Part shown: positions 275-62,688 of the stretch, piece by piece
How positions within the stretch are numbered: the stretch's first letter is position 1
How the letters are laid out: every line of letters begins with the position of its first letter
Source: an uncultured virus (IMG/VR IMGVR_UViG_3300050343_000130)
Taxonomy: Duplodnaviria > Heunggongvirae > Uroviricota > Caudoviricetes > Crassvirales
IMG/VR virus record: IMGVR_UViG_3300050343_000130
DNA: 64,000 nt
Direction: 5' to 3' (one strand)
The notes under the pieces: generated by a model
What the model saw: only the letters and a program-made list of their open reading frames with translations
The model's database searches: none
What the model was told of the DNA's origin: nothing
Translations under genes and position numbers: made by a program

Positions 275-463
275 CTACTTTCTTCGCCAAGCTCTGTGCA
301 CTGATGCACTTACTTCTTGGCTAACTATTTGTATTTCAAGCACTTGCTTGTTAGCAATGATAGGTACATAACTGTAGTCTTGAACTGTGCTACAAGGAAC
401 ACAAGTTTTATATCCATAACCTACTCTTATTGGGTGTACTTTTTCGCCGCATTTACAATACAT
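275..463 (-). CDS. small Zn-finger protein (DksA/TraR C4-like)
   Basis: CxC...CxxC motif (YCKCGE..., TCVPC); directly downstream of early promoter motif at 488-520. Confidence 0.65.
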   Translation of the reverse strand: MYCKCGEKVHPIRVGYGYKTCVPCSTVQDYSYVPIIANKQVLEIQIVSQEVSASVHRAWRRK

Positions 464-487
464 ATATTTAATTTAATTTGTTACATT

Positions 488-520
488 TATATTATCGATA
501 TGTATTCGTATTTGTTTTGT
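488..520 (-). promoter_or_regulatory. class I (early) promoter-like motif, copy 1
   Basis: ACA-N5-AATACGA-N8-CGATAATATA on minus strand upstream of ORF 275-463. Confidence 0.75.
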
Positions 521-521
521 G

Positions 522-653
522 TTAATACATATCTTGTTGCCACTTTGGTATCTCGGAATTATATCTAGTCCAATACTCTCGCTCTATCGCCTCGATTTCT
601 ACCAATTTAATCTTGTGATGACTAAACTTCCGTTTCTTTCTGGATTTCTTCAT
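522..653 (-). CDS. hypothetical 43-aa basic protein (MKKSRKKRKFSHH...)
   Basis: Translated by hand; ATG-TAA, fills the gap between neighbouring minus-strand genes. Confidence 0.55.
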   Translation of the reverse strand: MKKSRKKRKFSHHKIKLVEIEAIEREYWTRYNSEIPKWQQDMY

Positions 654-819
654 ACATTTTTTTGATCGCTAGATACATTACATGAGCATGTAGTTCATTA
701 TAAGAGTCGCCTTCAACGTGAAACTCTGCTATTTGCCAGTGAATGCTGTCATACATTAATTCTTTAGTGACGTCAGCAATACCTTGTGCTACCTCGTCTA
801 TTTCTTTCATTTTACTCAT
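622..819 (-). CDS. hypothetical early protein
   Basis: ORF track 622-861; likely start at MSKMKE, just after the upstream gene stop. Confidence 0.6.
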   Translation of the reverse strand: MSKMKEIDEVAQGIADVTKELMYDSIHWQIAEFHVEGDSYNELHAHVMYLAIKKMYEEIQKETEV

Positions 820-821
820 AG

Positions 822-1004
822 TTATGCTTTTATATATGTTAAACCTTTGTGGTTGAACCATTCAGATATACCGATTTGATCGCTACCGTCTTTGTCATTG
901 TATTTAAATGCAAATGTTGGTGGTAGATTGCCAAGATTGTATGGCTTATAGGTAATACCGTTTAGTTTTAATTTTTTCTCGTGGAGTTTTTTAAGTTTAT
1001 TCAT
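822..1004 (-). CDS. hypothetical early protein
   Basis: 60-aa ORF immediately downstream of promoter motif 1016-1048. Confidence 0.65.
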   Translation of the reverse strand: MNKLKKLHEKKLKLNGITYKPYNLGNLPPTFAFKYNDKDGSDQIGISEWFNHKGLTYIKA

Positions 1005-1015
1005 ATATTGTTTAT

Positions 1016-1048
1016 TATATTATCGTTAGTTATTCGTATTTACTTTGT
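1016..1048 (-). promoter_or_regulatory. class I promoter-like motif, copy 2
   Basis: ACA-AAGTA-AATACGA-ATAACTAA-CGATAATATA. Confidence 0.75.
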
Positions 1049-1252
1049 ATAATCAACATTCGGTTGTATACTTGCAGCGACACCTTGTCTGAATTGCCAC
1101 TCTCGTCTGCGATATTCGTGATCGGTGCACCACTTACGCCATGCTTTACTTACTGTATTGTTAGTACCGTATTTCGCTTCGAACTCTTCGACTTGCTTTA
1201 GTTTAGCGTCGATTTGGTCTTGAGGATAGTCGTTGAATTTAGTAGAAGTCAT
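1040..1252 (-). CDS. hypothetical early protein
   Basis: 70-aa ORF in the minus-strand early cluster. Confidence 0.65.
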   Translation of the reverse strand: MTSTKFNDYPQDQIDAKLKQVEEFEAKYGTNNTVSKAWRKWCTDHEYRRREWQFRQGVAASIQPNVDYTK

Positions 1253-1358
1253 AGTATATGTCTAAAACGGTTGATTTTTCTTCGCTAGTCAGTTTAGAGT
1301 AGCACTTGTTATATTTTCTGTAGCTTATTTTAAGCAGATAGGTATTCATATGTCCCAT
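1239..1358 (-). CDS. hypothetical 39-aa protein (MGHMNTYLLKISY...)
   Basis: Translated by hand; starts 17 nt after promoter motif copy 3. Confidence 0.5.
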   Translation of the reverse strand: MGHMNTYLLKISYRKYNKCYSKLTSEEKSTVLDIYYDFY

Positions 1359-1374
1359 AGTATTATTTATTTAT

Positions 1375-1407
1375 TATATTATCGTTAATTATTCGTATTT
1401 GTTTTGT
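1375..1407 (-). promoter_or_regulatory. class I promoter-like motif, copy 3
   Basis: ACA-AAACA-AATACGA-ATAATTAA-CGATAATATA. Confidence 0.75.
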
Positions 1408-1408
1408 G

Positions 1409-1558
1409 TTATCCGTAGATTCCGAAGCTTGTTGGTGCTCCGTTTTGTATCATATTTATTATTAATGAAATGGAACCAAAGATTACTAGAGTTACTTGAG
1501 CATAAGCGATCACGCCTATTACTATGTTAAGTACTTTGTTGTGGTGAAATTTTCTCAT
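1409..1558 (-). CDS. 49-aa single-pass membrane peptide
   Basis: Translated by hand: MRKFHHNKVLNIVIGVIAYAQVTLVIFGSISLIINMIQNGAPTSFGIYG; long hydrophobic stretch. Confidence 0.55.
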   Translation of the reverse strand: MRKFHHNKVLNIVIGVIAYAQVTLVIFGSISLIINMIQNGAPTSFGIYG

Positions 1559-1559
1559 A

Positions 1560-1763
1560 TTATTTATTTGTTGATTTATAAAATTCTATTCTATCTAAGA
1601 CATCTTGTCTAGTTATTTCACCTTCCATTTGTTTACCGATGTAGTGAGTCATGTCGATTTCTTTGCCGTTAGGACAAGTTAAAGTATATATCATATTATT
1701 ATTTTTAGTTGACATAGTGAGAATCGAACTCACATAAACCATTATGTCATTACTTGTTCGCAT
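1560..1763 (-). CDS. hypothetical early protein (true start may be internal, near 1694)
   Basis: ORF track; downstream of promoter copy 4. Confidence 0.55.
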   Translation of the reverse strand: MRTSNDIMVYVSSILTMSTKNNNMIYTLTCPNGKEIDMTHYIGKQMEGEITRQDVLDRIEFYKSTNK

Positions 1764-1806
1764 TTTTATACTTATAGAAACAAGTGGAACTTAAAGTTGT
1801 TACATT

Positions 1807-1839
1807 TATATTATCGATTACCGATCGTATTTAATCTGT
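1807..1839 (-). promoter_or_regulatory. class I promoter-like motif, copy 4
   Basis: ACA-GATTA-AATACGA-TCGGTAAT-CGATAATATA. Confidence 0.75.
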
Positions 1840-2142
1840 AACTGGATTTCTGTCTAGGATTAAATGTCTAGTATTTTTAGGCATATCGGTTGACTGTGAC
1901 CAGTATTGTCTCTTAATCCAGCAAGGCATTATAGATAACTTAGGTAACATTACTTTCAACACTTCGTCGTGATTGTAAGTTCTCTTAACACCTTTCTTGT
2001 TAGTGAAAGAGATGATTTGATTTCTACCGAGCCAAGACTTTCTTACTACAAAGTTCTTTCTTTCGATTGGTGGATAGATCGCACTTAATTCTTCAGTGCT
2101 TAGTTTACTGATAGCTTTCGCTAATAATTCTTTATTACTCAT
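1831..2142 (-). CDS. hypothetical early protein
   Basis: 103-aa ORF directly downstream of promoter copy 5. Confidence 0.7.
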   Translation of the reverse strand: MSNKELLAKAISKLSTEELSAIYPPIERKNFVVRKSWLGRNQIISFTNKKGVKRTYNHDEVLKVMLPKLSIMPCWIKRQYWSQSTDMPKNTRHLILDRNPVTD

Positions 2143-2164
2143 ATTATATTTATTTATTTACATT

Positions 2165-2197
2165 TATATTATCGTTTACTCTTCGTATTTAGTTTGT
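2165..2197 (-). promoter_or_regulatory. class I promoter-like motif, copy 5
   Basis: ACA-AACTA-AATACGA-AGAGTAAA-CGATAATATA. Confidence 0.75.
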
Positions 2198-2364
2198 ATT
2201 TAACATTCTTCAACTTTCAATACATCGTCTAATTTATAGAAATTAAAGACTTCTTGAATTGTGTTTACTTTTAGGTATTTAACATAGTTTGTAGGAATTC
2301 CATTTTTATTCAAGTATTCTCTAAAGTTATTTTAAACATAGTATTGTTATTTGTTTGTTACATA

Positions 2365-2397
2365 TATATTATCGTATACCAATCGTATTAGGTTTGT
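2365..2397 (-). promoter_or_regulatory. class I promoter-like motif, copy 6
   Basis: ACA-AACCT-AATACGA-TTGGTATA-CGATAATATA. Confidence 0.75.
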
Positions 2398-2450
2398 AAA
2401 GTAGTACTATTGTTTAGTAGTAGAAAAATAGTTGTAGGTATTATGCGAGG

Positions 2451-10015: not shown

Positions 10016-10016
10016 T

Positions 10017-11440: not shown

Positions 11441-11475
11441 AATAATAACTTTTTGGACAGTGAAAAAAAGATAAT

Positions 11476-22789: not shown

Positions 22790-23383
22790 ATGCACAGTGT
22801 ATTTAATTATTTAGTTGAACCGAAGGGTAGTAGGTCAACTGGAAAAAAAAATATAGAAGGACAAGAACTATTATTAAATACAGACTTACAAAATCACGAA
22901 TACGTAAATAGAATAGGTACCGTGTTAAGTTTACCACTAGTAACAGTATATAAAGAATTAAAAGAAGGTGATGATGTTATTGTACATCATAATGTGTTCA
23001 GAAGATTCAGAGATGTTAGGGGTAAAGAGAAAGATAGTAAGAACTACTTAAGTGAAAATGTATATTTAGTTCAACCAGATCAAGTATATGCTTATAAAAG
23101 AAATGACGAATGGAAAGCCTTAGAAGGTTTTGTATTTGTTATGCCTATAAAAGAAACAAAAATGTTTTCGGTAAATGATGAAAAACCATTAATAGGTATT
23201 GTAAAATACTCAAATGGTGAATTTGAAAAAGAGCAATTGATAGGGTTTAGACCAAATTCAGAATATGAATTTATAATAGAAGGGCAGAGGTTATACCGAG
23301 TACCCGTCAATTCAATTACAATCAAATATGAACATCAAGGAAACGAAGAAGAATATAATCCAGGCTGGGCACAGGGCAGTTGA
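22790..23383 (+). CDS. GroES-like protein (extended, possibly tandem fold)
   Basis: YLVEP...GTVLSLP...LKEGDDVIVHH pattern, second half FVFVMP...GIVKY. Confidence 0.55.
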   Translation: MHSVFNYLVEPKGSRSTGKKNIEGQELLLNTDLQNHEYVNRIGTVLSLPLVTVYKELKEGDDVIVHHNVFRRFRDVRGKEKDSKNYLSENVYLVQPDQVYAYKRNDEWKALEGFVFVMPIKETKMFSVNDEKPLIGIVKYSNGEFEKEQLIGFRPNSEYEFIIEGQRLYRVPVNSITIKYEHQGNEEEYNPGWAQGS

Positions 23384-23603
23384 GGAACTTATAAAAGTAG
23401 CTAAAGAAGATATTGTTGATTCAGACGATGATATATCAGCTGACAGATTAAAAAATGCCGCAGCCACTAAAAAGCTTGCAATTTTCGACGCTTTTGAGAT
23501 ACTTAACCGCATCGAGGAAGAAGAAAGAATTCTTGATAACAAACCAAAAAAAGAAGTTAAATCAACTTCGTTTGGTGGTTTTGCTGAAAATAGATCTAAA
23601 TAA
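23328..23603 (+). CDS. putative terminase small subunit
   Basis: Helical 91-aa ORF immediately upstream of terL. Confidence 0.45.
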   Translation: MNIKETKKNIIQAGHRAVEELIKVAKEDIVDSDDDISADRLKNAAATKKLAIFDAFEILNRIEEEERILDNKPKKEVKSTSFGGFAENRSK

Positions 23604-25823: not shown

Positions 25824-28255
25824 ATGGCAGGAGTAGTAAATAGTTTTTTCCCAAGTCAAGTCGCAAGTGACTCTGAGAAGATGTCACGAGACTACGGGCT
25901 CCAAGTTGGAAGAGCAATTCAGAATGAGTGGTTCTCGAACAACTCTGGTGTAACTAGATTCAGAAGTAATCAAAATACATTCCATAGCTTAAGGCTATAT
26001 GCAAGAGGTGAACAGCCTATACAAAAATATAAAGATGAAATGTCTATCAACGGCGATTTATCTTATCTTAATTTAGATTGGAAGCCAGTACCTATATTAT
26101 CAAAGTTTGTAGATATAGTTGTTAATGGCATAGCTGATAGATCTTTTGACCTTACAGCTTATTCTCAAGATCCATACGGGGTTAGCAAAAGAACCAAGTA
26201 TATGGAATCTATTATAAGAGATTTACAAACTGAAGAATTAAATGTATTTGCACAAGAAAATTTTGGTATAAATTTATTTGAAAACAATCCAGATAAATTG
26301 CCAGACTCTGAAGAAGAGTTAGATTTACACATGCAGCTAAGCTATAAGCAAGGGATTGAAATAGCAGAAGAAGAAGCTTTGAGTGTTATGTTTGACGAAA
26401 ACAGATATGACTTAACAAAGAAAAGATATTATTATGATATAACAACTCTAGGTATTGGTGCTGTTAAAAATAATTTTACAGAAGCAGAGGGTGTAACTGT
26501 AGAATATGTTGATCCAGCTTATTTAATTTATTCTTACACAGAGGACCCGTATTTTCAAGATATATATTATGCAGGCGAGGTTAAATTCGTGCCCTTAAAC
26601 GAGCTTAAAAAGCAGTTTCCGAACCTATCTGAGGAACAAATGGATCAGATACAATCACAAGGATCGCAAAATTATGGTGTTTGGAATAATAATATAAGTA
26701 ATACAAACAATAATAATAGAGATCAAAATATAGTTCAGATACTTTACTTTAATTATAAAACTTACATGAACGAAGTTTATAAAGTGAAAGAAACTGCAAC
26801 AGGCGCTTCAAAAATAATAGCAAGGGATGACCAGTTCAATCCACCTATTGAAATGTACGAAGAGCAATTTGGTAAAATGTCTAGATCACTTGAAGTATTA
26901 TACGAAGGTGTAATGGTATTGGGAACTGATATATTGCTTAAATGGGAAATGGCTAAAAACATGATGCGACCAAAAAGCGATAGCAGCTAAGGTTAAAATG
27001 AATTACGCTATAACAGCCCCTAGAATGTATCAAGGCAGAATAGAATCAATAGTAAGTCGTTGTACTGCTTTTGCTGATATGATACAATTAACACATTTAA
27101 AACTACAACAAGTATTACAAAGAATGATACCAGACGGTGTTTACTTAGATGCTGACGGTATAAATGAAGTTGATTTAGGTAATGGTACAAATTATAATCC
27201 TCAGGAAGCACTTAATATGTTTTTTCAAACAGGATCTATAATAGGTAGGTCGTTTACACAAGAGGGTGATATGAACCCTGGTAAAGTGCCAATACAAGAA
27301 GTACAGACTGGAAGCGGAGGTCAAAAGCTACAAACACTTATATCTACGTACAACTATTATCTTCAAATGATAAGAGATGTAACTGGATTGAATGAAGCAA
27401 GAGATGGTAGCACGCCAGATTCAAGAGCTTTAGTAGGTGTACAAAAATTAGCAGCAGCTAATTCTAACACAGCGACAAGACATATACTTGATGCAGGTTT
27501 ATATTTAACAAGAGAAACAGCGGAGTGTTTATCTTTAAGAATATCTGATATACTTGAATACCACCCAGCAAAAGAATCTTTTATTCAAAAAATTGGAGGA
27601 TTTAATGTAGCTACTTTAGATGAATTAAGGGATTTACATTTGCATGATTTCGGTATATTTTTAGAGTTAACTCCCTGATGATGAAGAAAAACAACTTTTA
27701 GAAAACAATGTTCAACAAGCATTATCAGCTGGATTAATTGATTTATCCGATGCAATAGATATAAGAGAGGTTAAGAATATAAAGTTAGCTAATCAATTAT
27801 TGAAAGTTAGACAAAAGAAACGTCAAGAAAGATTACAACAAGAACAGCAAGCAAATATACAAGCTCAAGCTCAAGCAAATGCACAAGCACAACAAGTAGC
27901 GGCACAAGCTGAAATACAAAAAGACCAAGCTTTATTTCAAACAAAGTCTCAATTAGAACAATTAAAAGGTCAAATTGAACAGCAAAGAATAGGCGTTGAA
28001 GTTGGTGCTAAAAAAGAATTGATGGCTTTAGAATTCCAATACAACATGCAACTAAAAGGTATGGAAGTTCAGAATGCTAAAGACAAAGAAAAAGAAATAG
28101 AAGATCGAAAAGATCAGCGTACAAGAATACAAGGTACACAGCAAAGTGAAATGATTGCGCAAAGAAAAAACGATACACCACCGACTAACTTCGAATCTGG
28201 AGGAAATGACACAATGGGAGGTGGATTTGGCTTAGGTGCTTTTGATCCTAGGTAA
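25824..28255 (+). CDS. portal protein (two apparent +1 frameshifts at ~26985, ~27673)
   Basis: Follows terL; PILSKFVDIVVNG, IRDVTGLNEARDG, Q-rich C-terminal coil. Confidence 0.8.
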
Positions 28256-29544: not shown

Positions 29545-31002
29545 ATGGCATTTGATGTAGCGCCAGCAACGTTGGCAAATTTAAACCACCTTACACCGAG
29601 ACCAGTAAAGGGGCTGTTTGGAGATAACTATTTATCTTTAGCAGATATGAGCTGGACTCAACAATTTTTACCTGAAGTTTACGAGAAAGAAGTAGAGAGA
29701 TACGGTAACCGTACTATCACTGGATTCTTAAGAATGGTAGGAGCAGAGATGCCTATGGCATCAGATCAAGTAGTTTGGTCAGAACAAGGAAGATTACACA
29801 TAGCTTACGATACGGCAGTATCTAATGCACCTGCAGGAGCAGCTGGTACTCAGACTATCGGTTTACCTTCTCCAGGAGCAGATGGAAAAGTTCCATTATT
29901 AGGACCTGGTATGACTATCGTTATTGCTAAAGGTACTGTAACTAACAAAGCATTTGTTAAGTCTGTAGGGGCTTTAGCAGGTGGTGTTCAGACTTACGCT
30001 ATTGAAGTATATGATAACGCAAACAGAAACCTTACAGTAGCTTTACAAGGAGCAACAAATGGTAACGGTAACTTAAGCTTATTCGTATTTGGTTCTGAAT
30101 ATGGAAAAGGATCTTCATTAGCTGGTAATTCAGTTGATGCATCTTTTACAACTTTCAGTAACAAACCAATCATCTTAAGAGACAAGTATGAGGTTAACGG
30201 TTCAGACGTTGCTCAAATTGGATGGGTTGAAGTTACTACTGAAATAGGAACTGGTGGATACTTATGGTACTTAAAATCTGAGCATGAGTCAAGAATTAGA
30301 TTCGAAGACTACTTAGAAATGAGTATGGTTGAAGCAGAAAATGCAGCTACTCCATTCACGAATGCAGCAGGAGCTACACTTTCAGGTATGCAAGGATTAT
30401 TCTCTACACTAGAAGAAAGAGGATTAGTATGGTCAGGAACTGATTTTGCAACAGTAGGTGCAGGAACAGGGATCGATGCATTTGATCAAATCTTACAAGA
30501 GCTAGATAAGCAGGGAGCTATTGAGGAGAACATGATGTTTTTAGATAGAGCTACGTCTCTAGGTATTGACGACATGCTAGCTGCTCAAAATTCTTACGGA
30601 GCTGGAGGTACATCTTACGGTGTATTTGACAATTCTGAAGATATGGCACTAAACCTTGGATTCTCTGGATTCAGAAGAGGAGCTTACGATTTCTACAAAA
30701 CAGACTGGAAATATTTAAATGATTCTACAACTCGTGGATTAATTAACGATATCAAAGGTGTTATTGTACCGGCTGGAACTTCTACAGTTTACGATCAACA
30801 ATTAGGACAAAACATTTCAAGACCTTTCTTACACATCAGATACAGAGCTTCTGAAGCTGATGATAGAAGACTAAAATCTTGGGTGACTGGTTCAGTTGGC
30901 GGAAACTATACAAGTGACACGGATGTTATGAATGTGCATTTCTTATCAGAAAGAACAATGTGTACTCAAGCAGCGAACAACTTCGTATTATTAAAAGCTT
31001 AG
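29545..31002 (+). CDS. major capsid protein
   Basis: 485 aa, strongly biased codons, follows scaffold, followed by hairpin. Confidence 0.8.
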   Translation: MAFDVAPATLANLNHLTPRPVKGLFGDNYLSLADMSWTQQFLPEVYEKEVERYGNRTITGFLRMVGAEMPMASDQVVWSEQGRLHIAYDTAVSNAPAGAAGTQTIGLPSPGADGKVPLLGPGMTIVIAKGTVTNKAFVKSVGALAGGVQTYAIEVYDNANRNLTVALQGATNGNGNLSLFVFGSEYGKGSSLAGNSVDASFTTFSNKPIILRDKYEVNGSDVAQIGWVEVTTEIGTGGYLWYLKSEHESRIRFEDYLEMSMVEAENAATPFTNAAGATLSGMQGLFSTLEERGLVWSGTDFATVGAGTGIDAFDQILQELDKQGAIEENMMFLDRATSLGIDDMLAAQNSYGAGGTSYGVFDNSEDMALNLGFSGFRRGAYDFYKTDWKYLNDSTTRGLINDIKGVIVPAGTSTVYDQQLGQNISRPFLHIRYRASEADDRRLKSWVTGSVGGNYTSDTDVMNVHFLSERTMCTQAANNFVLLKA

Positions 31003-33641: not shown

Positions 33642-36600
33642 ATGGCAGAATTAATACACACATTTACCTGGGAAAATGAACAAAGATCTTGATGAAAGAT
33701 TAGTTCCTAACGGTGAATATCGCGATGCTTTAAATTTAGAGATTGCCTCTTCTGATAATTCACAAGTCGGTTCATTTCAAAATATAAAAGGTAATAGAGA
33801 ATTATTCTATGAGTCTAAGCAACTTAAAAAACAGGTGCTTTTACTTTATGGAGTGGCAGTGATTATATAACATCACTAAGCAATCCTGTGTGTATTGGCG
33901 CAATCTCCGATGAAAATTCAGATGATATATATTGGTTTATAGCCTCAGATAATGTAAGTGCTATAGCTAAATATAATTCTATAACTCAATTAACACTCCC
34001 ATTACTTGTAGACACCCAAAACATTTTAAAATTTAGCAAAAATTATTTAATAACTGGTATTAACGTACTTGAGGGTATGTTATTTTGGACTGACAATCAA
34101 ACAGAGCCAAAAAAAATAATCATAAAAGATTGGGCACCGCCAGCTAATTTCTCTACTCATTCACAAATATATGGCAGAAACTTTATAGAATCTGATATAA
34201 CTGTTATAAAAAAATATCCTTTACAACCACCAACAATAACAACTTACTCAACTACGCAAAAGCTACCAGATGGCACTGTTGCTAATATTGATACTCAAAC
34301 ATTATTTTCTTTTACAAAAAACGTAGGGACTGTTGCAGCGCCTATAATAGCGCCTTTATCACCACAAGATGGGGCACAAACTTTAACCTGGCTAGGCAAT
34401 ACTCCTCCATACTACAAGGTTGGAGACATTTTAATATTTTCATTAGCCACCAATGATCCTTTAGATACAGATGCGGTTATAAAGTGTAAAGTATTAAGTG
34501 TTATTGGTGGAAGTACAAATCAAACAGGAGCATCAGTACAAGTTCTTACAGTAGGCCCAGGTTCTGAAACACAAACATTAGACCCCGGTTTATTTGATGT
34601 AACTCTTGAAGAAGACACACCGTTTTTTGAAATGAGATTTGCAAGGTTTGGTTATAGATACAAATATGAAAATAATGAAATATCTGCATTTTCTCCATTT
34701 AGCAATCCAGCCTTTATACCTGGAGCTTTTGATTACTCCCCAAGACAAGGCTATAATTTAGCTATGGTTAATAATGTTCGACAATTAACTATATCTAATT
34801 TTATTCCGTCTAATATTCCAGTGGATGTAATTAGTGTTGATATATTATACAAAGCTACCAACAATGCAAATGTATATGTGGTAGATACATTTACATCGAA
34901 TGATGATGAGTGGACTTCTAATAGCTTTAATATTGAAACAGAAATAATAACATCTGTTGTTAATGCTAATCAATTATTAAGACCATATGATAATGTACCT
35001 AAAGCTGCGTTAGCCCAAGAGATTACTGCCAATAGGCTTATATACGGAAATTACGTACAAAACTTTAATTTGTTAACTCCAAGCGGAGATACTTTACAGA
35101 CAATTTTAGCTATAGGTACTGATTCAAATGAACTTTTTGATCCAGTTACAAATAGTTTGACAAGCGTTACTATAGATAATGAGCAGGTTGCTGAATCAAT
35201 AAAATCACTAAGAACATACCAAGTGGGGGTTGCTTACATGGACGAATACGGTAGAACAACTCCTGTGTTTACAAGTAAAGAAGCTTCTGTTGTTATACCC
35301 AAAGAAGAGGCGCAATTTTCAAATAAGCTAACAGCTCAGTTAGCAAGCGCAATACCTTATTACGATCAGCAAAATCAATTTCCTTATTTTAAATACTATG
35401 TTAAGGAAACTTCTCAGGAGTATTATAATTTATGTTTAGATAGATTTTATGATGCTGAGGATGGTAATATATGGTTGTCTTTTCCATCGGCAGAAAGAAA
35501 CAAAGTAGACGAGGAAACTTTTATTATACTAAAAAAAGAGCATGATAATAATGATCCCGTAACTGAACAAGCTAGATATAAAATTATTGCAATTGAAAAT
35601 GAAGCTCCTCAATATTTAAAAGAAACAAAACTATCCATGGGGCTTCTTGCGACTACTTTTAATGTTGGTGGTTTTCCAATAGAAGGTGTTAATGAAATTT
35701 GGGTAGACAAAGACGACTTTGATGAACAATTTGGGGATACGACAAGAACGACCTCAGGTTTATTAATGAGGGTAACAGCGGGGGCAAACGTTAGTGAATA
35801 TTATAAAATAACCACGTTTGGATTAGCAGGAGCTAGCAATGCTTATGTTAGGTTACAGAGCTCTTCTGTTTTTGGCCCTGATATGAATTTCACGTCTACA
35901 TCACCTTATGGGTTTCCAAATGCAATTAGCGGTTTAAATTTAGAAATTTCAAGAGTTGAAATACAAAATAAACCAGAATTTACTGGTAGGTTCTTTGTCA
36001 AGGTGAATCAAGATGCTTTATTGGAACAAAAAATAGTAGCCGCATCTGCTAGTGCTAATGCTAACTATGCTAGAAAAGCATTAGGATACTGTTATTGGCT
36101 AACTGGCACTTATACGAGTGCTGGATTTTGGCAGGATTATTGGAAGAGGCCTGATGCGCAAGGAGCAACTAACAGGCTATTTATAGATAATATGCGCGCT
36201 GATTGTGAGCCTCGTGGAAACGGAGTAAATATAGCGGGCTCTATGGAATTAAGTTGGTCTGGTGGATATGGAGGATCAAGAGGTGATGGTATTAGATTGG
36301 AAAATCCAGCTTTATTAGAACAACTAGATAGCGGCGGAGTTTTATTTAGATTTATAGATGCAGGCAATGGTATATCAGATCCACAAGGCACAATATATCA
36401 AGTAACTAGCGTTACTAAATTAAGAGGTAATGTTTGGGATTGTAGTGACAACTGGTTTGACAACCATAGTGCATTTACAAATCAATTAACAAAATGGAAA
36501 ATAAAATTTAATGTAGCTAATGGATGGCAAGGTTTACAATGGGACCCTACTAATACCACAGATGGAATTGCGCCCTGGGTACAAAGTCAATCTAGTTATA

Positions 36601-38144
36601 ATAATGCCTATGTTGGAATTGAATTTATAGGTTTTGGAACAGATGATGATAGTTTTACAACAAATAATCCAGCTATATTTGAAACAGAACCAAAAGAAGC
36701 TGCAGAGCTTGATATATACTACGAAGTTCCCGGGTCTTATGCTAAATCAGAAGCGGGTAACGTGCATCAGTTAGATTTTTTTAATTGCTATTCATTTGGT
36801 AATGGTGTTGAATCAGATCGTATAAGAGATGATTATAATCAACCTACAATAGAAAATGGAGTTAAAGCATCGGCAACTTTAGACGAGCCTTATAACGAAG
36901 AACACAGAGGTAATGGCTTAATATTTTCACAAATATTTAATTCAACATCTGGTGTTAATGGTTTAAACCAATTTATACAAGCAGAATCTATTACTAAAGA
37001 TGTAAACCCAGAGTATGGTAGCATACAAAAGCTTTACTCTAGAGACACTAACTTAGTTACATTGTGTGAAAATAAGTCAATGAAAATATTGGCCAATAAG
37101 GATGCTCTATTCAATGCTGATGGCAGTTCCAACATTACATCTAATCAAGCGGTGCTTGGAGCGACTGTAACTTTTCAAGGAGAATTTGGTATTGCAACAA
37201 ACCCAGAATCATTTGCTGAATACGGATTTAGAATGTATTATACAGATGCGAATAGAGGAACTGTCATAAGACTTTCAAATGATGGCATTACAGAAATTTC
37301 AGATTACGGAATGCATGGATTCTTTTCAGATAACTTAAAATTAAACAGTAAGATTGTGGGTACATGGGATGCTGATAGAAGAAATTACAATGTTTCTTTG
37401 TCAACGCTTTCTCCGTACTGGCAACAAACATTAGGGGCTGGACAATTTGATAGGCTTAATAAAGATCCTTTATGTAATCAATTTGTTAATACATATCCAA
37501 CAACTTCTACAACTATTTCATTTAAAGAAGATGTGAATGGATGGACTTCTAGGAAAACTTATATACCAGAAGCCGGTGTGTTTTTGAATGGTGTTTATTA
37601 CACATTTAAAGCTGGTAGATTATGGGAACATAATAGTAACGCCTTACATAATACTTTTTATGGGACAGGACCAAATAGTGTTTCGCTGGGCGCTTATTAT
37701 GAAAGTTCTTTCAACGTTATATTTAACGAGCAGCCTTCTAGTGTTAAAGGATTTAAAACAGTAAATTATAGTGGTACTGCTTCTAAAGAATATGTGTATA
37801 AAATATTACCTAGTCTGAGGACTTATTCATTGGCACAAATTCAAGCACAACAATTAACACCTAATAATGTAACATCTACAGTCGGATGGTATACTAATTC
37901 TATTACAACGGATTTACAAGAGGGTCAAGTCAAAGAATTTGTAGATAAAGAAGGTAAATATTTTAATTACATAAGAGGATTGAATACTTTTTACAATACA
38001 AATTGTGATAACAATGTTGACTCCCATGAATTTAATGTACAGGGTATTGGAAGAGCATCTGCAATAAGCGGGAATGTAAATCCTACTGAATTTACAGTAA
38101 CAACTTCACTTGACGATAACTGTTTCCCTGATCCAACACCTTAA
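33642..38144 (+). CDS. tail stabilisation/nozzle protein (frameshifts at ~33670 and ~33820)
   Basis: GKMNKDLDERLVPNGEYRDALN N-terminus, GNGVESDRIRDD and FGIATNPESFA; ORFs 33676 and 33888 join. Confidence 0.7.
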
Positions 38145-42528: not shown

Positions 42529-45500
42529 ATGCCAAAATATACAGATTCAAATGGTAACGTTGTTTCAGAAGAACAGGTTGCTCAGGATATGGCTATAGTC
42601 GAGTTTACTGATTTACAAACTTACTTAGAATTTGCAGGCTTAAAGCCAGTAAAGGAAAACGGAGTTGCGGAGACGGGTGCGTCTGCGGCTCCAGACAACA
42701 ATCAAGCGCTCAATCAAAAGGGAGTAGATACGGGATCCAATTGGGATCAAGATTCTTTGGATACGTCAAATACTGAAGAAGCAAAGCCAATTGACAATGT
42801 TCGCTATATAAAATTCAAAAGCGGTGCTGTAGTTTATGAAGATGAATATTTAGATAAATATGCTGGCACTGAAAGGTTCCCAGCCAGCTTTGATGATTAT
42901 GCCGCAAAATTTAAAACAAAACCTATCACACCTTCTCCGTCTAATGTAGAGCTAGAAGAAGTTGTGGTTGAAGCAAAGCTTAGTCCTGAAGTAAAAAAAG
43001 CGCAAGATAATGCAATCAAATACGTTCAAACAATTGATAGCAAAAATGAAATAACTTTAAAGGGTGAAATAGGTATTAATTACTTTAACCTTACTGACGA
43101 GTATAATGGTATTGGAAAACTTGAACCTAAGTTTAAAAGAGAGCAGCAATTTAAAACTCTTCCTGGCGGGAGAAAATCAGGGTATTCAGAATATGTTAAT
43201 GATATTGATACAGATTTTAAAAATGAACTAGGTGAAACTAAATACAATCAATGGCAAGCTATATTAAAAGCAGCAGGAGATACAGTAATAACTAAAGAAA
43301 ATATTGCTGAATTTATAGATTTAGCTAAAATAGATAATGCTACTAAATCTGAAGTTGTAAATTCTGCTAAGAATAAAGCTTCGGAATTATTTATATACGA
43401 TAATGATTTATCTGAAGCTGAGCAGGAAAAAATGTTAATGAACCTGCCTTATAGCTCAAAGACTAAAGCGGCTATGCGGGAAGAGGTTGCCAAAAGAAAA
43501 CAAGATGAAATTGATTTTGAAAATAAATTTGGTAGAACTTTAGTAAGAGAAGAAACACTACAAGGTAGAACTTATAAGCCTTATTCGCTTGCGGTGAATG
43601 AAAACATGTTCGACGATATCATAGCAAAAGAAAACGCAACTTTAAAAACTGATTTTGAAGCAATAAATATTGACGCTAAAAAATTTATATCTGCACAAAA
43701 TGATTTTACACAAGTAAGATCTCAATATGAAAACGAATTAATTGATTTAGAAAATCAAATAAAAAATTATTCAACAGATAATTATTCTTCTCCAGAAGAA
43801 ATAAATATTAGAAATTCATTTGTAACAAGATATAATGACATTTTGTCCTTAGCTAACTCTGAAGCCATGCAGTCTCAATGGAAAGACCTAACCGCATCTA
43901 GGGCTGAATTAAAAGAAAGAAGTGACGCTTTGACATTAAGAGCTAAACAACTTAATGATTTAAATATAGGTGCTGGCGCAATTGGCAAAAGTTATGAATT
44001 AGGAGATCAGTTCGCCCAAGTAATGGAAGAAAGCTTTTTAGGAACTTCCGCTATGTTAGGAGGGTCTGTTTTTAAGTTAATTGGTAATATTGCAACCATA
44101 GGACAAACAGAAGACGAGGCAATGCAGAATAGCTTTTATAGGGATATGAAAGATATGAAAATGGCAGCCGTTGATTATAATGAAAGACTTCAAAAAAGAA
44201 GGGAAAATTATTTGCCTTCGCGAATTGAATGGGACGATAAAGAGGCTGGATGGGGTGATTACGTAAGCACTATGCTGGTTGAAAATTCTCCTTCTATACT
44301 AACTGCTATGGGTACATTAGGGGCAAGCTCTGCTGGTGTTTTATCAGTAAAGGCAGCCACTAACGTTGGTACAGGCATATTTTTTGTTATGGAAGCTGGA
44401 GGCCAAATGTCAGGACTAGAAATAGCGCAAAGAAATGCAGATGAAATAATATTGTCTTTAAATGAAGAGCTAAAAACAGCGGTAGGTGACTCTGAAAAAA
44501 GAGAAATACAAAGACAAATTCAAGAGCAAAAAGATATATTAAATTTATCTCAATGGAAAAAATCATTAAGTAGCTTGGTATACGGAGGTACAGCTGCTGT
44601 GGCAGAACGGTTTGGTACATTAAATTTTATAAATAATTTTCAAAAATATTCTAGAGCTATTGGGGCTAACCAGTTTAAAAAGTTAGTCGGCGATGGCATG
44701 GCTAGAACATTAGCTAAAACAACAGGAACGATTGCTGGCGTTGGAATGGGAGGAGGAATAGAACTGCTAGAAGAAGGTTTTACTTTAATCGGCCAAAACA
44801 TATCAGATGTTGCTATATTAAAAGAAGATAAAAATATATTTGAGGGATTAGACAAAGATTTTATTGCGAACACATTAGCTACAAGCATGGCTATATCCGG
44901 CCCTCAAGCTTCTCAAAATATATATTCTATTGTAAAGTCAGAAGTAATATCTAGAAGGGAAGCAAGAGAGGAATCTAAACTTAGAGACGAAATATTAGGC
45001 TTACAAAATAGTATAAACGGAGATAAACTTACTGCGGAAGAAAGAAAGAGAGCAAGGAGAAAGAAGTACGAACTAATGACAGAATTAGGTTTACAAAATA
45101 CAGAAGCTGTATTAAAAATAAACGATATGACTGCTCAAGAGTTTGAAAATGTAACCGAAATTAATAGAGAAATGAGAGCTTTAGAAAACGAAGCCTCACA
45201 GTTAGGGGCCGGAGGAGACGTTTCTGGTTATGCCTTGAATGAATTAAAAAATTTAAAATCTAAATATAAAGATTTAATATCTCAGAGAGAAGCCATACTT
45301 GAAAGGCAAAAAAATGAAATAGACAAGTTATTTGATAGCGATGGCGAATTAAATGTAAACAAACAATATTCGGCTCAGTTATTTAATTTTGCTAAAAATA
45401 TAATTAAAAATAATAAAGGCACAAAAAGTCAAAATTTTACCACAAGTGCAGATGCTATAAAATTTATTAAAGAAAATCATTCAAAATGGTTTGCTGATTT

Positions 45501-48500
45501 AAATGATCAAGATAAAAAAGATTTTGAAAGCGGACAATGGGGAGGACTAAACATCGGTAATAATATATATACAAACCAAGAGTCTGTGTATAATGATATT
45601 AATACTGGTAATTTAAGAGTTGGGCAAATGGCAGCGATGTCACCTTTGCATGAACTCGGCCATATTCAAGCTGTCAAAGCAGGAATAATAAAAGACGAGA
45701 AATTTGTTGGAGACGCGAACGCTATGATAAATGGCGTAAAACAAGAGGTTGCTAACTTATTTAATCAAAGAAAAATATCAGCTGAGGATTATAAATTATT
45801 CCAAGATAGAATGGCCCAGTATATAGACGCTAATACAGGCCAAGTAAATGCAGATGAACTAATACAACTTATCGGAGACTTCACTAATTTAGGTATATTA
45901 CCAAGAAGTTCTTTTAATAGTGTTTTTGAAATTAAAAACTTTGTTAGTAATTTAATGAAGAAGGCAAATGGTGATGCGGAAATGTATTTTAGATTTAATA
46001 AACCAGAAAACGTATTTGGTTTTGTTAATTCTTGGACAAAAAAAGCTATTGGTGGAAAACAATTAGGTGGTATTGAAGATAAAGAAAAAAGCAAAGCTAA
46101 GCTAAGTAAATCTCAAGTACAACTTGAAAAAACAAAAGCTAAGTTTAAAGAATTAGAATCTAATTTCCAATCAGGAGCAGCCCAAAATGCGATAGCTAGT
46201 GAGTTGTTTAACATGGTTGACACACAAATTGGTAATAGATTTAATTTAAGGCCACAAGTAAAACAAGATCTTAGAGATGATGTAATTGAACGAATATATA
46301 AAGCACAAGAAACTACAAAATGGGACGGTAGAGGTAGCTTATATGGCTTTATAAACGGTCGTATTGCTAAAAGAATACTTGATGCTTTAAGAGGTGATCA
46401 ATCTTATTTGGAAAATATTGATAATAATCAATTTGAGCAATTAGAAAAAGCAGCAGCTGTAGTGGTGGAGGATAAACCTGTTACTCAAAAAGCAAAACCA
46501 CAATATAAAAATTTATTAAAAAGTAATGTGCTATCTAGCGAAGCTATAGCAAATATAAATTCAAAAGTATTAACAATAGTACGAACGCTTAAATCTAAAT
46601 TAAACGAAAAAATTTCTAATAATAGAACCGTTACACCTTTAATCGCTGAGATTAAAAAAGAAATGGGGAAGCAGGCTGATATTGATTTAAAGAAAGCTAT
46701 GGGCGGTATTAAAGATAATGCCATACAGAAATTTCTTACTAAAAATAAAAAAGCTATATTAGAAAACATGACCACTACGTGGTTAATGGGTGCTATCCCA
46801 AGTGCTGTACAAAAGCAAGTTGATGGAAAGTTTATATCTAATTGGAAAGGCCAAAAAATTGATAGAGAAACCGTTGGAACAGATAATGCGGGTAGAACAT
46901 CTGGCGCGGAAATAACACGAAGAAAGCCAAATGTAGCATCAATGCCTGATGCGGAATTCTTAAGTTATTTTATTGCTGACAATAAACTCATTAGAGGCAG
47001 GAAAGAATCACTTGCTAAAGCAATGGCTGAAGAAATATCTTTAGAAATATTTAACACTGAGCTACAGAATGAAAATAGCGAGATAAGCAAGGCTTTTGAA
47101 CAAAATCAAACATTAAAAGGTGTAGAGCTATTAGACAATTATATAGTAGAAGTTGCTAAACAAACAGAAAGAGGAAATGCTAAGTTTAGCAAATCACTAA
47201 GTGCTAACGAGGCTAATATTGTAAAAAGTAAAGCGAATCAATTAAAAAATAAGTTAATAAAAGCTGATGTAAAATTAACTGCCAAAAGATTATTACCATT
47301 TTTAATAGACACGTACCCTGAAATAGACGAAAAAAGATTAAAATCTTTTGCTACAGAAGCTATACAATCTATACAAAGATATATTAAAAAAATTGAAATA
47401 ACCGATAAAGTTGATTTTGGTAATTTTATTTTTGAAGGGATGTCTTTAAAAGAAAGCAATAGTAATTTATTAAAGTTTTTTGGATTTTTAAAAAATGATG
47501 TAGAGTCTTTAGGTGCGTTGTTTAATAACCCTGATCTTATAGCAGAACAAAGGGGTCTTGAGCTTTCTTATAATACTAATTTAATTTTAAAAGAAGGCGC
47601 TGATGGATTAATAAAAATATTAAGATGGGGAAGGGGCCATAATGTTACTTCAGGAAAAATTGGTGGTGGTAGAAATCAAATTTATGCAGGCAACCCCGAT
47701 TATTTAGATAATAATTTAAATAATATACCAGATGTTGAAGTAGTTTATAAAAAAGGCAAATCAACTTCTATTAAAGCTGTTTTCTATAAAGGTATTGAAG
47801 TAGAAAAATGGAAAGAAAGGATACAATCCCCAGCCCAAAAACCCGCAGGTGGAATAGAAGGCTTTAGAAAGGATTCTCAAATTAGAGAAGATGCTGCAAG
47901 AGAAGCGTGGACTTACTTAACGGACTATCTACAACACGTAAAAGATAACGGCTCTAAAATAAACTGGGTCATGACTATGATGAGTTTGAAATCGAACATG
48001 TCATCCGTCCTTAAAGCGGCGGCTCCTGTTAAGTATTACTTTAACGGTAATTACAAAGGGCCATTAAGGTATGAGCATATGATACCTACCGAATACATGG
48101 TGCTAAAACTTACCGACTATTATTATAATGGCAAAAGCTTTGATTTAAATACCTTAAGGGACAAGTATAATGTTGCTATTATTCCTGTAATAATGGACAA
48201 TAATTTTAACGTTCTTACTCAGTCTCAAATGAACAGTTCGTTTGATCCAATGGTTGATTCCGAAGTTGATAGATATTTTAATGAAAACACCTATGGATAT
48301 CCTAATATGTTTCCTATAGAATCTTTAACCGGAGAAACTAAGGGTAATATTGAGGGTGAAACTTGGGTAAAATTTAACAACGTTTTAAAGCCACAGGCTG
48401 CGAAAATGTCTAAGTCAATGCGTATAGCAGATAAGGCTATGAACGCTGCTAGAATGCCAGACTACGGAGTAAACCCAAAAGGAATTAGTGTTTATGACTT

Positions 48501-51188
48501 TGACGATACTTTAGCTTTTAGTAAAAGTAAAATTATTGTAACTATGCCCGACGGTAAAGTTACTAAGATCACACCTGCTGAATTTGCAGCTAAAGACGAA
48601 ATACTTTCAGAACAAGGAGCGTCTTTTGATTTTAGTGAATTTAACAAAGTTGTTCAAGGTACTAAAGGGCCATTAGCAGCTAGACTAGAAAAAGCAATAA
48701 AGAAATTCGGCAATAAAAATATATATGTTTTAACTGCTAGGCCACAAGCGTCAGCACCTGCTATATACGAATTTTTAAAAGGTATTGGTTTAGAAATACC
48801 ATTAGAAAATATAACTGGATTACAAGACGGAAGACCTTCTGCTAAAGCTGACTGGATGATTGAGAAATTTTCAGAAGGTTACAATGATTTTTATTTTGTA
48901 GATGATGCATATAAAAATGTTAAAGCGGTGCAAGATGTGTTAAGTGTTTTAGATGTGAAGTCTAAAGTGCAGCAAGCTAGAGCAAAATTCAGTAGATCAT
49001 TAAGTTCTGAGTTTAATAAAATGATTGAACGTAACAAAGGTGTTACTGCTGAAGCTCAATTTTCAAATGCTGTTGCTAAAAGAAGAGGAGCTAATATTGG
49101 TAAATACAAATGGTTTATACCATCGTCGGCTGATGACTTTAGAGGATTGACACAATATACTTTTGCAGGTAAAGGAAAACAAGGTGAAGCAGATCAAGCG
49201 TTTTTTGAAAAAGCTTTAATGGATCCCTACTTCGCGGGAATATCTGCTATTGAATCATCGAGACAGATGATGAAAAATGCTTATGCTAATTTGTTAAAAC
49301 AAATGAAGCCAGTAAGAAAGAAGCTTAATAAATTAATACCTGATACAAGCTATACTTATGATCAAGCTATAAGGGTTTATTTATGGAACAAAGCAGGATA
49401 CGATATTCCAGGTTTATCTAAAAGAGATTTAAAAAAGTTACTTAGTATAATTAATAATGACTCGGATTTATCGGCGTTCGCTGATGGGGCTTTGTTATCT
49501 TCTAAGCAAGATCAATGGTCCGAACCCTCTGAGCACTGGCAAGCTGGGACTATACTTAAAGATTTAAATGAGTTAACTGAAAAAGTAAATAGAAAAGAAT
49601 ACTTAGGTGAGTTTATAGCTAATTCAGAAATATTATTCAGTCCTGAGAACATGAACAAAATTGAAGCTTTATATGGATCTAGACATAGGGAGGCTTTAGA
49701 GGATGCACTATATAGAATGCGTAATGGGACTAATAGACCATCGGGTGGCAATAGATTAACAAACGCGTGGAATAACTGGGTTAATAATTCTGTAGGTACT
49801 ATTATGTTCTTCAATAGAAGATCGGCTTTATTACAGTTATTATCAACAGTAAACTTTATAAATTGGTCTGATAATAATCCGTTAAAAGCTAGTATAGCTT
49901 TTGCTAATCAGCCACAATACTGGAAAGATTGGGTTAGAATATTTAATTCTGATAAACTAAAGCAAAGACGTGGTGGTTTAAAATCAGATATACAAGAGCA
50001 AGAGATAGCGAGTCAGGCTAAAAACTCTAAAGATAAGTCATCAGCTATAATAGCTTACTTATTAAAAATAGGTTTTACGCCAACACAAATTGCAGATAGT
50101 ATGGCCATCGCAACAGGTGGAGCAACGTTTTATAGAAATAGAATAAACACGTACCTTAAACAAGATATGTCAAAAGAAGAAGCTGAAGCAAAAGCTTGGG
50201 CAGACTTTAGTAAAATATCAGACGAAGCACAGCAATCGGGTGACCCGGCTTTAGTATCTCAACAGCAAGCTAGTGTCCTAGGTAGATTAGTGTTAGCTTT
50301 CCAAAATACACCTATGCAATATACTAGGTTAATGAAAAAAGCTGGGCTTGACATTATAAACAGACGTGGTGATTTTAAAACAAATTTTAGTAAAATAATA
50401 TATTACGGTGCTGTTCAAAACTTTATATTCTCAGCGTTGCAGAATGCATTGTTTGCTATGATTCCTGGGTTTGATGATGAAGAAGAAACTGAAGAAGATA
50501 AGAAAAAGAAAGAAAACCAAAAGACTGGCAGAATAATACATAGTATGGTAGATACTATATTAAGAGGATCTGGTTTAGCCGGAGCAGTTGCAACTACCAC
50601 TAAAAATACTATTAGAAAATTTTTAGAGCAAGAAGAAAAAGGTTTTACCGCAGATCATACCTACACTATTATTGAAGCGGCTAACATATCACCACCTATA
50701 GGATCTAAATTAAGAAAACTATACGGAGCAATACAAACATGGAAGTTTGATAAAGACGTTGTTAAGGAAAGAGGTTTTGATGTTACTTTAAATGGTAAAT
50801 TAAACATTAGCCCAACATACAATATAATAGGTAATCTGTCATCTGCTTTAGTAAACTTACCGCTTGATAGAGCTTTAATGGAAGTTGAAGGTATTGTTGA
50901 AGCGTTAGATGAAAGAAATACTTTATACCAAAGAATAGCTTTAGCTTTAGGTTGGAGAACTTGGGGTGTGGGTGCTAAAAATGAAGAAGAAGATCTTATA
51001 AAGGATGCTGCTAAAGCAAAAAGAAAAGAAGAAGGAAAATTAAAAGCAAAAGAAACTAGAAGAGTTAATAAAGATGCTTTATAAAACTTGAATTAGAAAT
51101 AGATGGTGATAATTTTATTGAGTATTATGAATGGAAAAAAGGTAAAAGTATCAAAGATAAAATAGAATGGCTTAAATCAAAAAAATAA
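42529..51188 (+). CDS. giant polyvalent ejection protein: metallopeptidase + sigma-like + unknown + HAD phosphatase + C-terminal domain (ORF ends 51084; likely frameshift extends to 51188)
   Basis: HELGH at 45649; sigma region-2-like segment 46200-46400; DFDDT/LTARP/VDD HAD motifs 48496-48910; four AK[LFM]S[KR]S linkers. Confidence 0.75.
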
Positions 51189-52340: not shown

Positions 52341-52374
52341 AAAAAAAAGGAGGCTAACTACAACCTCCCTTTTT
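52341..52374. terminator. bidirectional intrinsic terminator at convergent junction
   Basis: A-run, GGAGG...CCTCC stem, T-run. Confidence 0.65.
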
Positions 52375-52376
52375 CC

Positions 52377-52400
52377 AACTAACTAACTAACTAACTAACT
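52377..52400. repeat. (AACT)6 tandem repeat
   Basis: Six direct AACT units. Confidence 0.85.
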
Positions 52401-52473
52401 AATACATATAAATTATTGAATTTTTTATACACATTAGTTTTTATATGTATAAAAAAGTCATAACTTCTATCCT

Positions 52474-61935: not shown

Positions 61936-62688
61936 TTAAAGATAATCAATTACTTGGTTGCTGTCGACATTAGCGATTAAATGGTCGATTGCTTCTTTTT
62001 TAATCTGCGAAACTATAACAGTTGCAGTCGGAACTTTGAGACCAATATAGTCTGCTATTTCTTTTGCAGAATGTTTGTTGCAATCTAAACCATAAAATAA
62101 TCTAACTACGTCGTATTGTTTTGATGTTAAATGTTCTTGCATTAGACTAAGCAAATAAGTGTTTAGTAAAGCTATGTTATATGGCTCGGACTTATCAGGT
62201 AATTGATAAGCAAAGTTATCTTCATCGGCTGGTGTTATATCATAACTTGAAAACATACTATTAAAAAACAACGCTACCATCTTATCATCTTTAGGGTTCT
62301 TGCGTATTTCATTTAGCTTGTGTTCTGGTATTTTAATATCGCCTCTGTTAATATCTATTGATCTTCTTATAGCTCCTTTAATTCTTTTACTTAGAAATGA
62401 CTTCAATGTTTTTTCAATGTCCTCTGATTCGTTTAAAACATCCCAGTCTAATCTGTCCACAGCTTTAGTTAATCCTGCACCGCCTTCTTGCAATAGATCA
62501 TTGATACTTAAAACTCCCGAAGCCTGCTGTGTTGTTGAAAACTTGCGAGCTAGATTTTCTACCAACGGCAGAAATCTAATTATAAGTTTATCTCTTGATA
62601 ATTCACTATAGCCAATGTCTTCATCAGGCATAGATGACTTAACATCTTCTTTATACCTAATGTAATTCTGTATATTATATTTTTTCAT
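61936..62688 (-). CDS. sigma70-family RNA polymerase sigma factor
   Basis: Region 2 LPLVENLARKF...DLLQEG..GL.KAVDR...IKGAIRRSI; region 4 LT.KQ.DVV.LFYGL...SAKEIA. Confidence 0.85.
   Translation of the reverse strand: MKKYNIQNYIRYKEDVKSSMPDEDIGYSELSRDKLIIRFLPLVENLARKFSTTQQASGVLSINDLLQEGGAGLTKAVDRLDWDVLNESEDIEKTLKSFLSKRIKGAIRRSIDINRGDIKIPEHKLNEIRKNPKDDKMVALFFNSMFSSYDITPADEDNFAYQLPDKSEPYNIALLNTYLLSLMQEHLTSKQYDVVRLFYGLDCNKHSAKEIADYIGLKVPTATVIVSQIKKEAIDHLIANVDSNQVIDYL

Follow-up and report, generated by a model that had tools for sequence, protein, structure and literature searches.

How might a phage direct host RNA polymerase to its genome before any of its own proteins have been made in the infected cell? 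This question is raised by a DNA stretch of 64,000 nucleotides from an uncultured virus (IMG/VR record IMGVR_UViG_3300050343_000130), hereafter called the window, and in particular by its largest open reading frame (ORF), which encodes a giant protein of 2851 residues. A preliminary description made from the letters of the DNA had assigned a part of this protein to the sigma factors. We find that the protein contains a real sigma domain 2-like domain of about 100 residues, which is fused to a new conserved domain within one of the segments set off by a recurring short motif, and that the multi-domain protein carrying it is probably packaged in the virion.

The sigma domain 2-like part and its family

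The segment in question spans positions 46114-47178 of the window, corresponding to residues 1196-1550 of the giant protein, and is flanked exactly by the motifs AKLSKS and AKFSKS. The residues quoted in the preliminary description are indeed found here, in frame 1 of the ORF 42529-51084 on the plus strand.

42529..51084, plus strand: giant ORF of 2851 residues (P0001), multi-domain and of 'polyvalent' or cargo type, the largest ORF of the window
46096..46113, plus strand: AKLSKS, first boundary motif (residues 1190-1195), found at this site in close relatives only
46114..46413, plus strand: sigma factor domain 2-like helical domain (residues 1196-1295)
46450..46497, plus strand: acidic/Lys-Pro linker (residues 1308-1323, model residues 113-128), modelled at low confidence (predicted local distance difference test, pLDDT, below 50)
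46498..47178, plus strand: highly conserved C-terminal subdomain (residues 1324-1550)
47179..47196, plus strand: AKFSKS, second boundary motif (residues 1551-1556), (V/I/A)K(F/Y)S in most of the family

Modelling of the segment with 51 relatives as alignment gave a pLDDT of 81.9, with only residues 113-128 below 50, and a structural search with this model returned sigma factor domain 2 in 19 of the 20 top entries. As modelled, residues 1196-1295 belong to the Sigma2 fold, the helical bundle of regions 1.2-2.4, while their sequence lies below the curated hidden Markov model cut-off. Foldseek, run with the whole segment against the PDB, had no entry at E≤0.001; two integrative models of B. subtilis sigma with RpoB (probability 0.28-0.30) were all that looked suggestive. 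At the level of sequence profiles, a profile of 51 N-terminal domains (A4) found the SigE N-terminal domain (8b3z_A, E 0.092) as its top match among 177,635 PDB sequences, in an alignment that covers the equivalents of regions 2.1-2.4. Pfam Sigma70_r2 (PF04542) matches 2 of the 51 relatives (best E 0.017), and the commonest NCBIfam family among them is the sigma70 extracytoplasmic function (ECF) family TIGR02937 (6 members, best E 0.013), with more sigma models next. The PHROG family phrog_234, 'late sigma transcription factor', is matched over residues 55-91 by the relatives L078 (E 2.8e-6), L077 (E 0.0064) and L062 (E 0.056), and phrog_1740, 'RNA polymerase sigma factor', by one distant relative at the same segment position (E 6.7e-6). 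In divergent subgroups, too, strings of region 2 can be made out, for example EDFQNS...KQDIEKFLVNRAFLR. Strings of the DxxQ(E/N) type and a helix of the form aromatic/hydrophobic-x-x-R-x-x-x-R are kept in every subgroup despite deep divergence, which argues for continued selection on a sigma-type surface.

We regard residues 1196-1295 as, very probably, a diverged homologue of sigma domain 2. The letter pattern by which region 2 had been recognised before fits only with shifts of 1-3 residues, but the assignment to region 2 itself survives through the structural, profile, NCBIfam and PHROG matches. Its start had been placed just after the first AKLSKS; the string ELFNMVD lies 30 residues past that motif. 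The 355-residue segment had also been read as sigma over its full length, of which about 100 residues are sigma-like and the remainder is not.

This remainder begins with the linker, which varies in length and sequence among relatives, and continues into the C-terminal subdomain. The latter is the best-conserved part of the segment, with 75 of 235 positions conserved, where a position counts as conserved if at least 95% of 20 diverse full-length relatives share it. It carries the motifs TPLIAEIKK, ENMTTTWLM, W.GKKIDRE, AGRTSGA, IRGRKESLAKA.AEE and ERGN, and many of its Lys, Arg, Gly and Thr residues are invariant. Modelled alone, it reached a pLDDT of 88.6 and a predicted template modelling score (pTM) of 0.85. 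Foldseek searches of this model against the PDB and BFVD gave zero matches, leaving the fold without a solved or viral counterpart, and the ESM Atlas returned nothing usable. A reading of its R, TS and EE residues as those of an ADP-ribosyltransferase was rejected in view of the predominantly helical model and the lack of such a fold among those listed.

For the giant protein as a whole, neither Pfam (all E values at 0.098 or higher) nor PHROGs at E≤0.01 offers a family, and tblastn against 50,697 phage records gave zero matches. Its relatives are metagenomic: at least 903 proteins of 1568-4990 residues were found at E≤0.001 with query residues 1150-1660, after scoring of 7994 candidates. Two scans yielded 79 viral-contig loci, in 74 of which the module of sigma-like part, linker and C-terminal subdomain lies inside an ORF of at least 2000 residues, usually around residues 1000-1800; the five exceptions with shorter ORFs are contig ends or interrupted frames. 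The segment ranks among the best-conserved parts of the protein, the mean identity to the window protein being 0.43-0.75 per 50-residue block across the 20 diverse full-length relatives. A search for short forms brought up 47 proteins of 195-622 residues, mostly singletons on short contigs, which we rejected as true stand-alone versions and read as fragments. At one locus (L070, in the 129.5 kb record G013) the giant gene is split into the overlapping ORFs 6232-10008 and 9941-13615, of 1258 and 1224 residues, with the break exactly at the linker between the sigma-like and the conserved subdomain; this looks like a frameshift at the inter-domain linker. The same record, possibly a concatemer, has two matches to the stand-alone sigma.

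Further domains and probable packaging of the giant protein

Outside the segment, the giant protein carries the following features, and a tail gene relevant to its packaging lies upstream.

34077..38144, plus strand: tail 'muzzle'-like structural gene of 1355 residues, upstream of the giant ORF (PF25729, crAss_MUZ_C)
45649..45663, plus strand: HELGH, a zincin-type HExxH motif (residues 1041-1045), with a conserved downstream glutamate, E1110
48400..48417, plus strand: AKMSKS, third boundary motif (residue 1958)
48418..48981, plus strand: haloacid dehalogenase (HAD)-phosphatase-like domain by its motifs (residues 1964-2151, 188 residues), between the third and fourth boundary motifs
48982..48999, plus strand: AKFSRS, fourth boundary motif (residue 2152), KFS family-wide
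49000..51081, plus strand: very conserved C-terminal region (residues 2158-2851), with 211 of 694 positions conserved

At least 95% of the 20 relatives share H1041, E1042, H1045 and E1110, residues that are nearly invariant in 52; the HELGH motif and E1110, which lie in the N-terminal half of the giant protein, could belong to the processing peptidase. The pattern [AG]K[LFMIV]S[KR][SA] occurs in four copies in the protein against 0.0145 expected, a number reached by none of 2000 shuffles, and most of the family has K(F/Y)S at the sites of residues 1551 and 2152. Maturation by cleavage could take place at these K-(F/L/M)-S boundary motifs, to which a GKMSRS in the portal ORF (26871-26888) is similar.

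In the HAD-like stretch, D1990-x-D1992-x-T1994, T2069, K2106 and D2125/D2126, which we take to be the canonical HAD motifs, are all kept in at least 95% of the 20 relatives; the stretch has no Pfam match. Some relatives (P0028, P0065, P0046) carry a P-loop kinase (PF13671, AAA_33/Zeta_toxin, E ~1e-15) 37 residues after DxDxT. The pairing of kinase and phosphatase resembles polynucleotide kinase-phosphatase and, as far as motifs can tell, suggests a possible cargo for RNA or nucleotide repair or for counter-defence. Among the Atlas neighbours of the last 694 residues are viral hypothetical proteins, the nearest named of which carry LPD38/LPD39 polyvalent-protein domains and serve as leads only. 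Judged by the modelled fold and by sequence motifs, the sigma2-like domain, the HExxH motif with E1110, the HAD set and, in some relatives, the kinase are unrelated domains united in one giant phage protein, which is the hallmark of the polyvalent proteins, in which a zincin-like HExxH peptidase is common.

The upstream muzzle-like protein matches PF25729 with its C-terminus (E 2.1e-5, 25.3 bits, just below the cut-off of 27) and is a virion structural protein by phrog_14478 (E 1e-105). In PhiCrAss001, the muzzle gp44 is followed by the cargo proteins gp45 and gp46 and then by the polymerase-associated gp47, gp49 and gp50, all of them described as present in virions (PMC10172136). The giant ORF occupies the place equivalent to these cargo genes, directly before the lysis gene. 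This synteny and the size of the protein make packaging and ejection reasonable to assume, and the giant protein is most likely packed in the virion and ejected. The syntenic protein of Maribacter phage Panino (1829 residues) is not detectably related to it, the best local match having an E of 0.008 over 92 residues. Finding a muzzle-like protein in a marine flavobacterial phage of 64-66 kb suggests a crass-like tail tip outside Crassvirales proper.

Host polymerase, promoters and the possible role of the module

The window holds two further elements that bear on transcription.

61936..62688, minus strand: stand-alone sigma factor of 250 residues (P0002; Sigma70_r2, phrog_351)
459..2400, minus strand: six promoter-like direct repeats (~45 nucleotides, family D1) before small leftward ORFs, with the consensus ~ACAAA..AAATACGA-N8-CGATAATATAA(A/T)(T/A)G

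No RNA polymerase family was found among the 59 ORFs of the window scanned against PHROGs, the giant ORF and the stand-alone sigma counted. A profile of the whole giant protein gave 9 matches at E≤1 against PDB sequences, with no polymerase among them and coiled-coil-type noise as their common character. It had been stated before that no virion RNA polymerase motif is visible, and this is borne out: the protein has a single DxDxD, at residue 225, which is not conserved; its region has 9 conserved positions, all outside the motif. With neither a polymerase match nor a conserved DxDxD, the giant protein is by this sequence test not a crAss- or N4-like virion RNA polymerase.

Sigma domain 2 docks on the clamp helices of the beta-prime subunit of RNA polymerase and reads the -10 element. 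Prediction of a complex between the sigma2-like domain and residues 200-380 of F. johnsoniae RpoC, a hand-picked range, gave a median score of 0.40 (runs 0.35, 0.51 and 0.40) against 0.01 for the best of 3 controls, weak support obtained with a stand-in host and a poorly folded beta-prime fragment (pLDDT 49-50). Between runs at least 91% of the contacts agree and the partner pLDDT is at least 69; the existence of solved sigma/beta-prime complexes may explain the pass. The mark applied lets 116 solved complexes out of 157 pass, along with 2 of 215 mismatches; at scores of ≤0.60, only 18 of the 157 do so, together with both mismatches. That the module engages host polymerase at all is, in our judgement, slightly favoured.

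Our best explanation, adopted tentatively and with somewhat less than even confidence, is that the module recruits this polymerase for the phage. The giant protein would be packed in the capsid and ejected ahead of or with the DNA, and after ejection its K-(F/L/M)-S boundary motifs would be the sites of cleavage, for which its own HExxH peptidase may be responsible. Once released, the module of sigma2-like part, linker and C-terminal subdomain would dock on the host core polymerase via its sigma2-like part, and together with its second part would bring the polymerase to the incoming phage DNA for a first round of transcription, before the 250-residue sigma is made. An extended scenario, in which an ejected, protease-released sigma-like factor with a new domain replacing sigma4 captures core polymerase at the envelope and fires the tandem promoters, possibly coupling transcription to genome entry, until the free sigma takes over, appears doubtful as a whole.

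Several observations weigh against recruitment. The first is the weakness of the window's own copy, which has no Pfam Sigma70_r2 match at E≤1 and stays below all curated thresholds; its best NCBIfam sigma match is SigI (E 0.058, at 12.7 bits where the cut-off is 260), and it has no match to phrog_234 at E≤0.1. Similarly, the stand-alone sigma was the only match in a six-frame PF04542 search of the closest related record, G001. A comparison by hhalign of the N-terminal profile with the phage's own sigma aligned 21-22 columns at regions 2.2-2.4 (E 0.12-0.16, not significant), the sigma alignment being shallow because the 120 homologues listed are all at least 78% identical. Secondly, conservation within the segment is lowest in the sigma-like part, where it extends to 6 of 120 positions, compared with 75 of 235 in the rest. 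Thirdly, sigma domain 4, the helix-turn-helix that serves the -35 element and the beta flap, was not detected by hhalign with a sigma profile in the C-terminal subdomain or the other four regions, which is a non-detection and not a proof of absence. Given the strong conservation of the rest and the undetected sigma4, the 'sigma' segment is best described as a sigma2-like domain that a flexible acidic linker joins to a new conserved domain, a layout that mirrors the minimal two-domain sigma. Finally, a homologue of the stand-alone sigma is present in G001 and in all 18 of the 18 further related records, and the promoter core tracks that sigma, or the host's, better than the variable virion domain, as detailed below.

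The weak and poorly conserved window copy would be accommodated by an exapted fold, that is, a sigma-descended domain that no longer touches RNA polymerase and serves in the particle or the ejection machinery, for example by binding DNA or another cargo domain, with the C-terminal subdomain carrying the activity. The very high conservation of the neighbouring subdomain with its invariant Lys, Arg, Gly and Thr residues agrees with such a role, as do the HExxH motif, the HAD domain and the kinase insert of some relatives, which point to a toolbox of unrelated activities. We nonetheless consider it unlikely, given that the sigma-like sequence features persist in every subgroup despite divergence and that complex prediction lends weak support to beta-prime docking.

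The stand-alone sigma at 61936-62688, proposed before, is real according to its matches to Sigma70_r2 (E 4.1e-5; 23.7 bits, the cut-off being 24) and phrog_351 (E 9.3e-16). As for the promoter array, its core CGATAATATAA has 10 matches in the window against 2.78 expected, with six clustered copies at 487-2374, and the repeats do not resemble the Bacteroidota promoter consensus TTTG/TAnnTTTG. Core arrays recur in the related records G001, G002 and G009, with 12, 8 and 13 same-strand matches at ≤1 mismatch. Identity to the window's proteins in these three records amounts to 99%, 71% and 64% for the stand-alone sigma and to 83%, 56% and 12% for the virion sigma-like domain at the corresponding locus. 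The core is thus kept where the virion domain is 12-56% but the stand-alone sigma 64-71% identical, so that on balance the array would more simply be read by the stand-alone or a host sigma than by the virion domain. G004 and G005 have variant cores only, though their stand-alone sigmas are 64% identical, which makes the correlation with the promoter core imperfect for both sigma candidates; covering 5 records only, the comparison speaks against a reading of the core by the virion domain, without being decisive. The virion domain may recruit polymerase without reading that core. TATAAAT(A/G), considered as a signal of gp55-type late promoters, has 13 matches against 6.4 expected, scattered over the window. 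The stand-alone sigma gene lies further along the same transcription direction, downstream of the array, so something must fire the array first.

These promoter data, the undetected sigma4 and the universal stand-alone sigma would also agree with a polymerase-binding decoy, in which the sigma2-like domain binds the beta-prime clamp helices without initiation and, once ejected, competes with host sigma and silences transcription of the host, leaving the phage promoters to the stand-alone sigma. Such a decoy shares with recruitment the evidence for the sigma2 fold and the weak docking support (0.40 versus 0.01 for the control). It leaves unexplained, however, the strictly linked and better-conserved C-terminal subdomain, as well as who first transcribes the sigma gene downstream of an array that is not host-like, and a few copies per virion would have to contend with the host's whole sigma pool; we rate it as unlikely. 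Chance resemblance, in which an unspecific four-helix bundle of a protein rich in helices would match sigma2 by accident, is improbable in view of a match list that is nearly pure sigma (19 of 20), unlike the control list for the neighbouring subdomain, of independent sequence methods that converge on the same family and sub-region, and of two relatives matching phage sigma PHROGs at E ~1e-6 in homologous position.

Returning to recruitment, the preliminary proposal that the phage injects a pre-made sigma and then makes a second one stands in part. It gains from the sigma2 homologue, the lack of an own polymerase in the window, the separate sigma, the cargo-type position of the giant gene and a promoter array that something must fire before the downstream sigma gene; it loses from the undetected sigma4, from the low conservation of the sigma-like part and from early promoters that appear tied elsewhere.

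Genome setting and relation to known takeover systems

The window approximates a near-complete phage genome of ~64-66 kb, G001 having 66,183 bases and 46% of sampled 31-mers in common with it. A rightward block (2849-52340) comprises tail fibres, chaperonins, terminase, portal, structural proteins and an amidase, and a leftward block the genes of nucleotide and DNA metabolism plus the sigma factor. The capsid-type protein (29545-31002) has matches in 85 phage records, all distant (<60% identity), which comprise 68 for Flavobacterium, 15 for Cellulophaga, 1 for Maribacter and one uncultured record; the source is a marine flavobacterial phage.

The chaperonins of the rightward block, located at 17141-18745 and 22790-23383, are GroEL-like (phrog_5725, E 1e-137) and GroES-like. 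Both the terminase large subunit (23603-24388 and 24722-25819) and the portal protein (25824-26990 and 26998-27678) are matched by their PHROGs across two consecutive ORFs, as N- and C-terminal halves, and each is a single gene in Panino. An intron, an intein, another interruption or a sequencing frameshift are possible causes. Between the convergent gene blocks, the intergenic region 52341-52473 contains a GC-rich hairpin followed by T's, which is terminator-like, and a short (CTAA)n-type tandem run. Strings resembling tRNA T-arms (GGTTCGATTCC-type) recur in the early region at 96-120 and 1705-1729, notwithstanding zero tRNA calls by ARAGORN in the window.

Like the polyvalent proteins described by Iyer et al. 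(2017), the giant protein is very large, combines unrelated domains, conserves HExxH and is probably delivered with the DNA. Zincin-mediated processing and jump-starting of transcription are among the themes of that work, which lists T4 Alt as an injected modifier of host polymerase and in whose main text the word 'sigma' is absent (PMC5512222). With the two-domain group 4 (ECF) sigmas the module has in common the sigma2 fold, weak sigma70-ECF profile matches and the sequence of sigma2, linker and second domain. It differs from them in that the sigma-like domain is not free but sits at about residue 1200 of a 2851-residue protein, and in that sigma4 is undetected here. T4 gp55, a free late protein, is synthesised in the course of infection and acts together with gp33 and the sliding clamp; its family, phrog_234, is matched by relatives of the module though not by the window's copy. 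Like the virion RNA polymerases of N4- and crAss-like phages, the giant protein is very large, has its gene at the close of the structural module, here behind a muzzle-like one, and would presumably serve to start transcription without new protein synthesis. In contrast to these, the giant protein has no polymerase signature and would borrow the host enzyme. T4 Alt acts via ADP-ribosylation and not as a sigma-like subunit; unlike this enzymatic modification, the giant protein would supply such a subunit.

The literature searched contained no account of a virion-packaged sigma factor, and within it the setting of the sigma2-like domain is unprecedented. Phages are known to take over host transcription by sigmas encoded after entry, by injection of whole polymerases (N4, crassviruses) or by injection of modifying enzymes (T4 Alt). 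The presence of a sigma2-like domain in the giant protein hints at a hijack of host transcription at infection, without proving it. If true, a sigma-derived domain in a probable cargo protein would be the missing combination, in which the specificity subunit alone is brought in, and the extended scenario, if it held, would constitute a third route to start an infection besides reliance on host sigma or an injected RNA polymerase. The K-(F/L/M)-S motif and the conserved HExxH offer a testable model for how giant proteins are cut into working parts, and, should the module bind polymerase, the partner domain without a known fold would become a candidate novel element for binding polymerase or DNA. 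With at least 903 metagenomic clusters and 79 viral contigs, the family is a large one; as it is unannotated and not found among cultured phages, naming one of its domains opens it to experiment.

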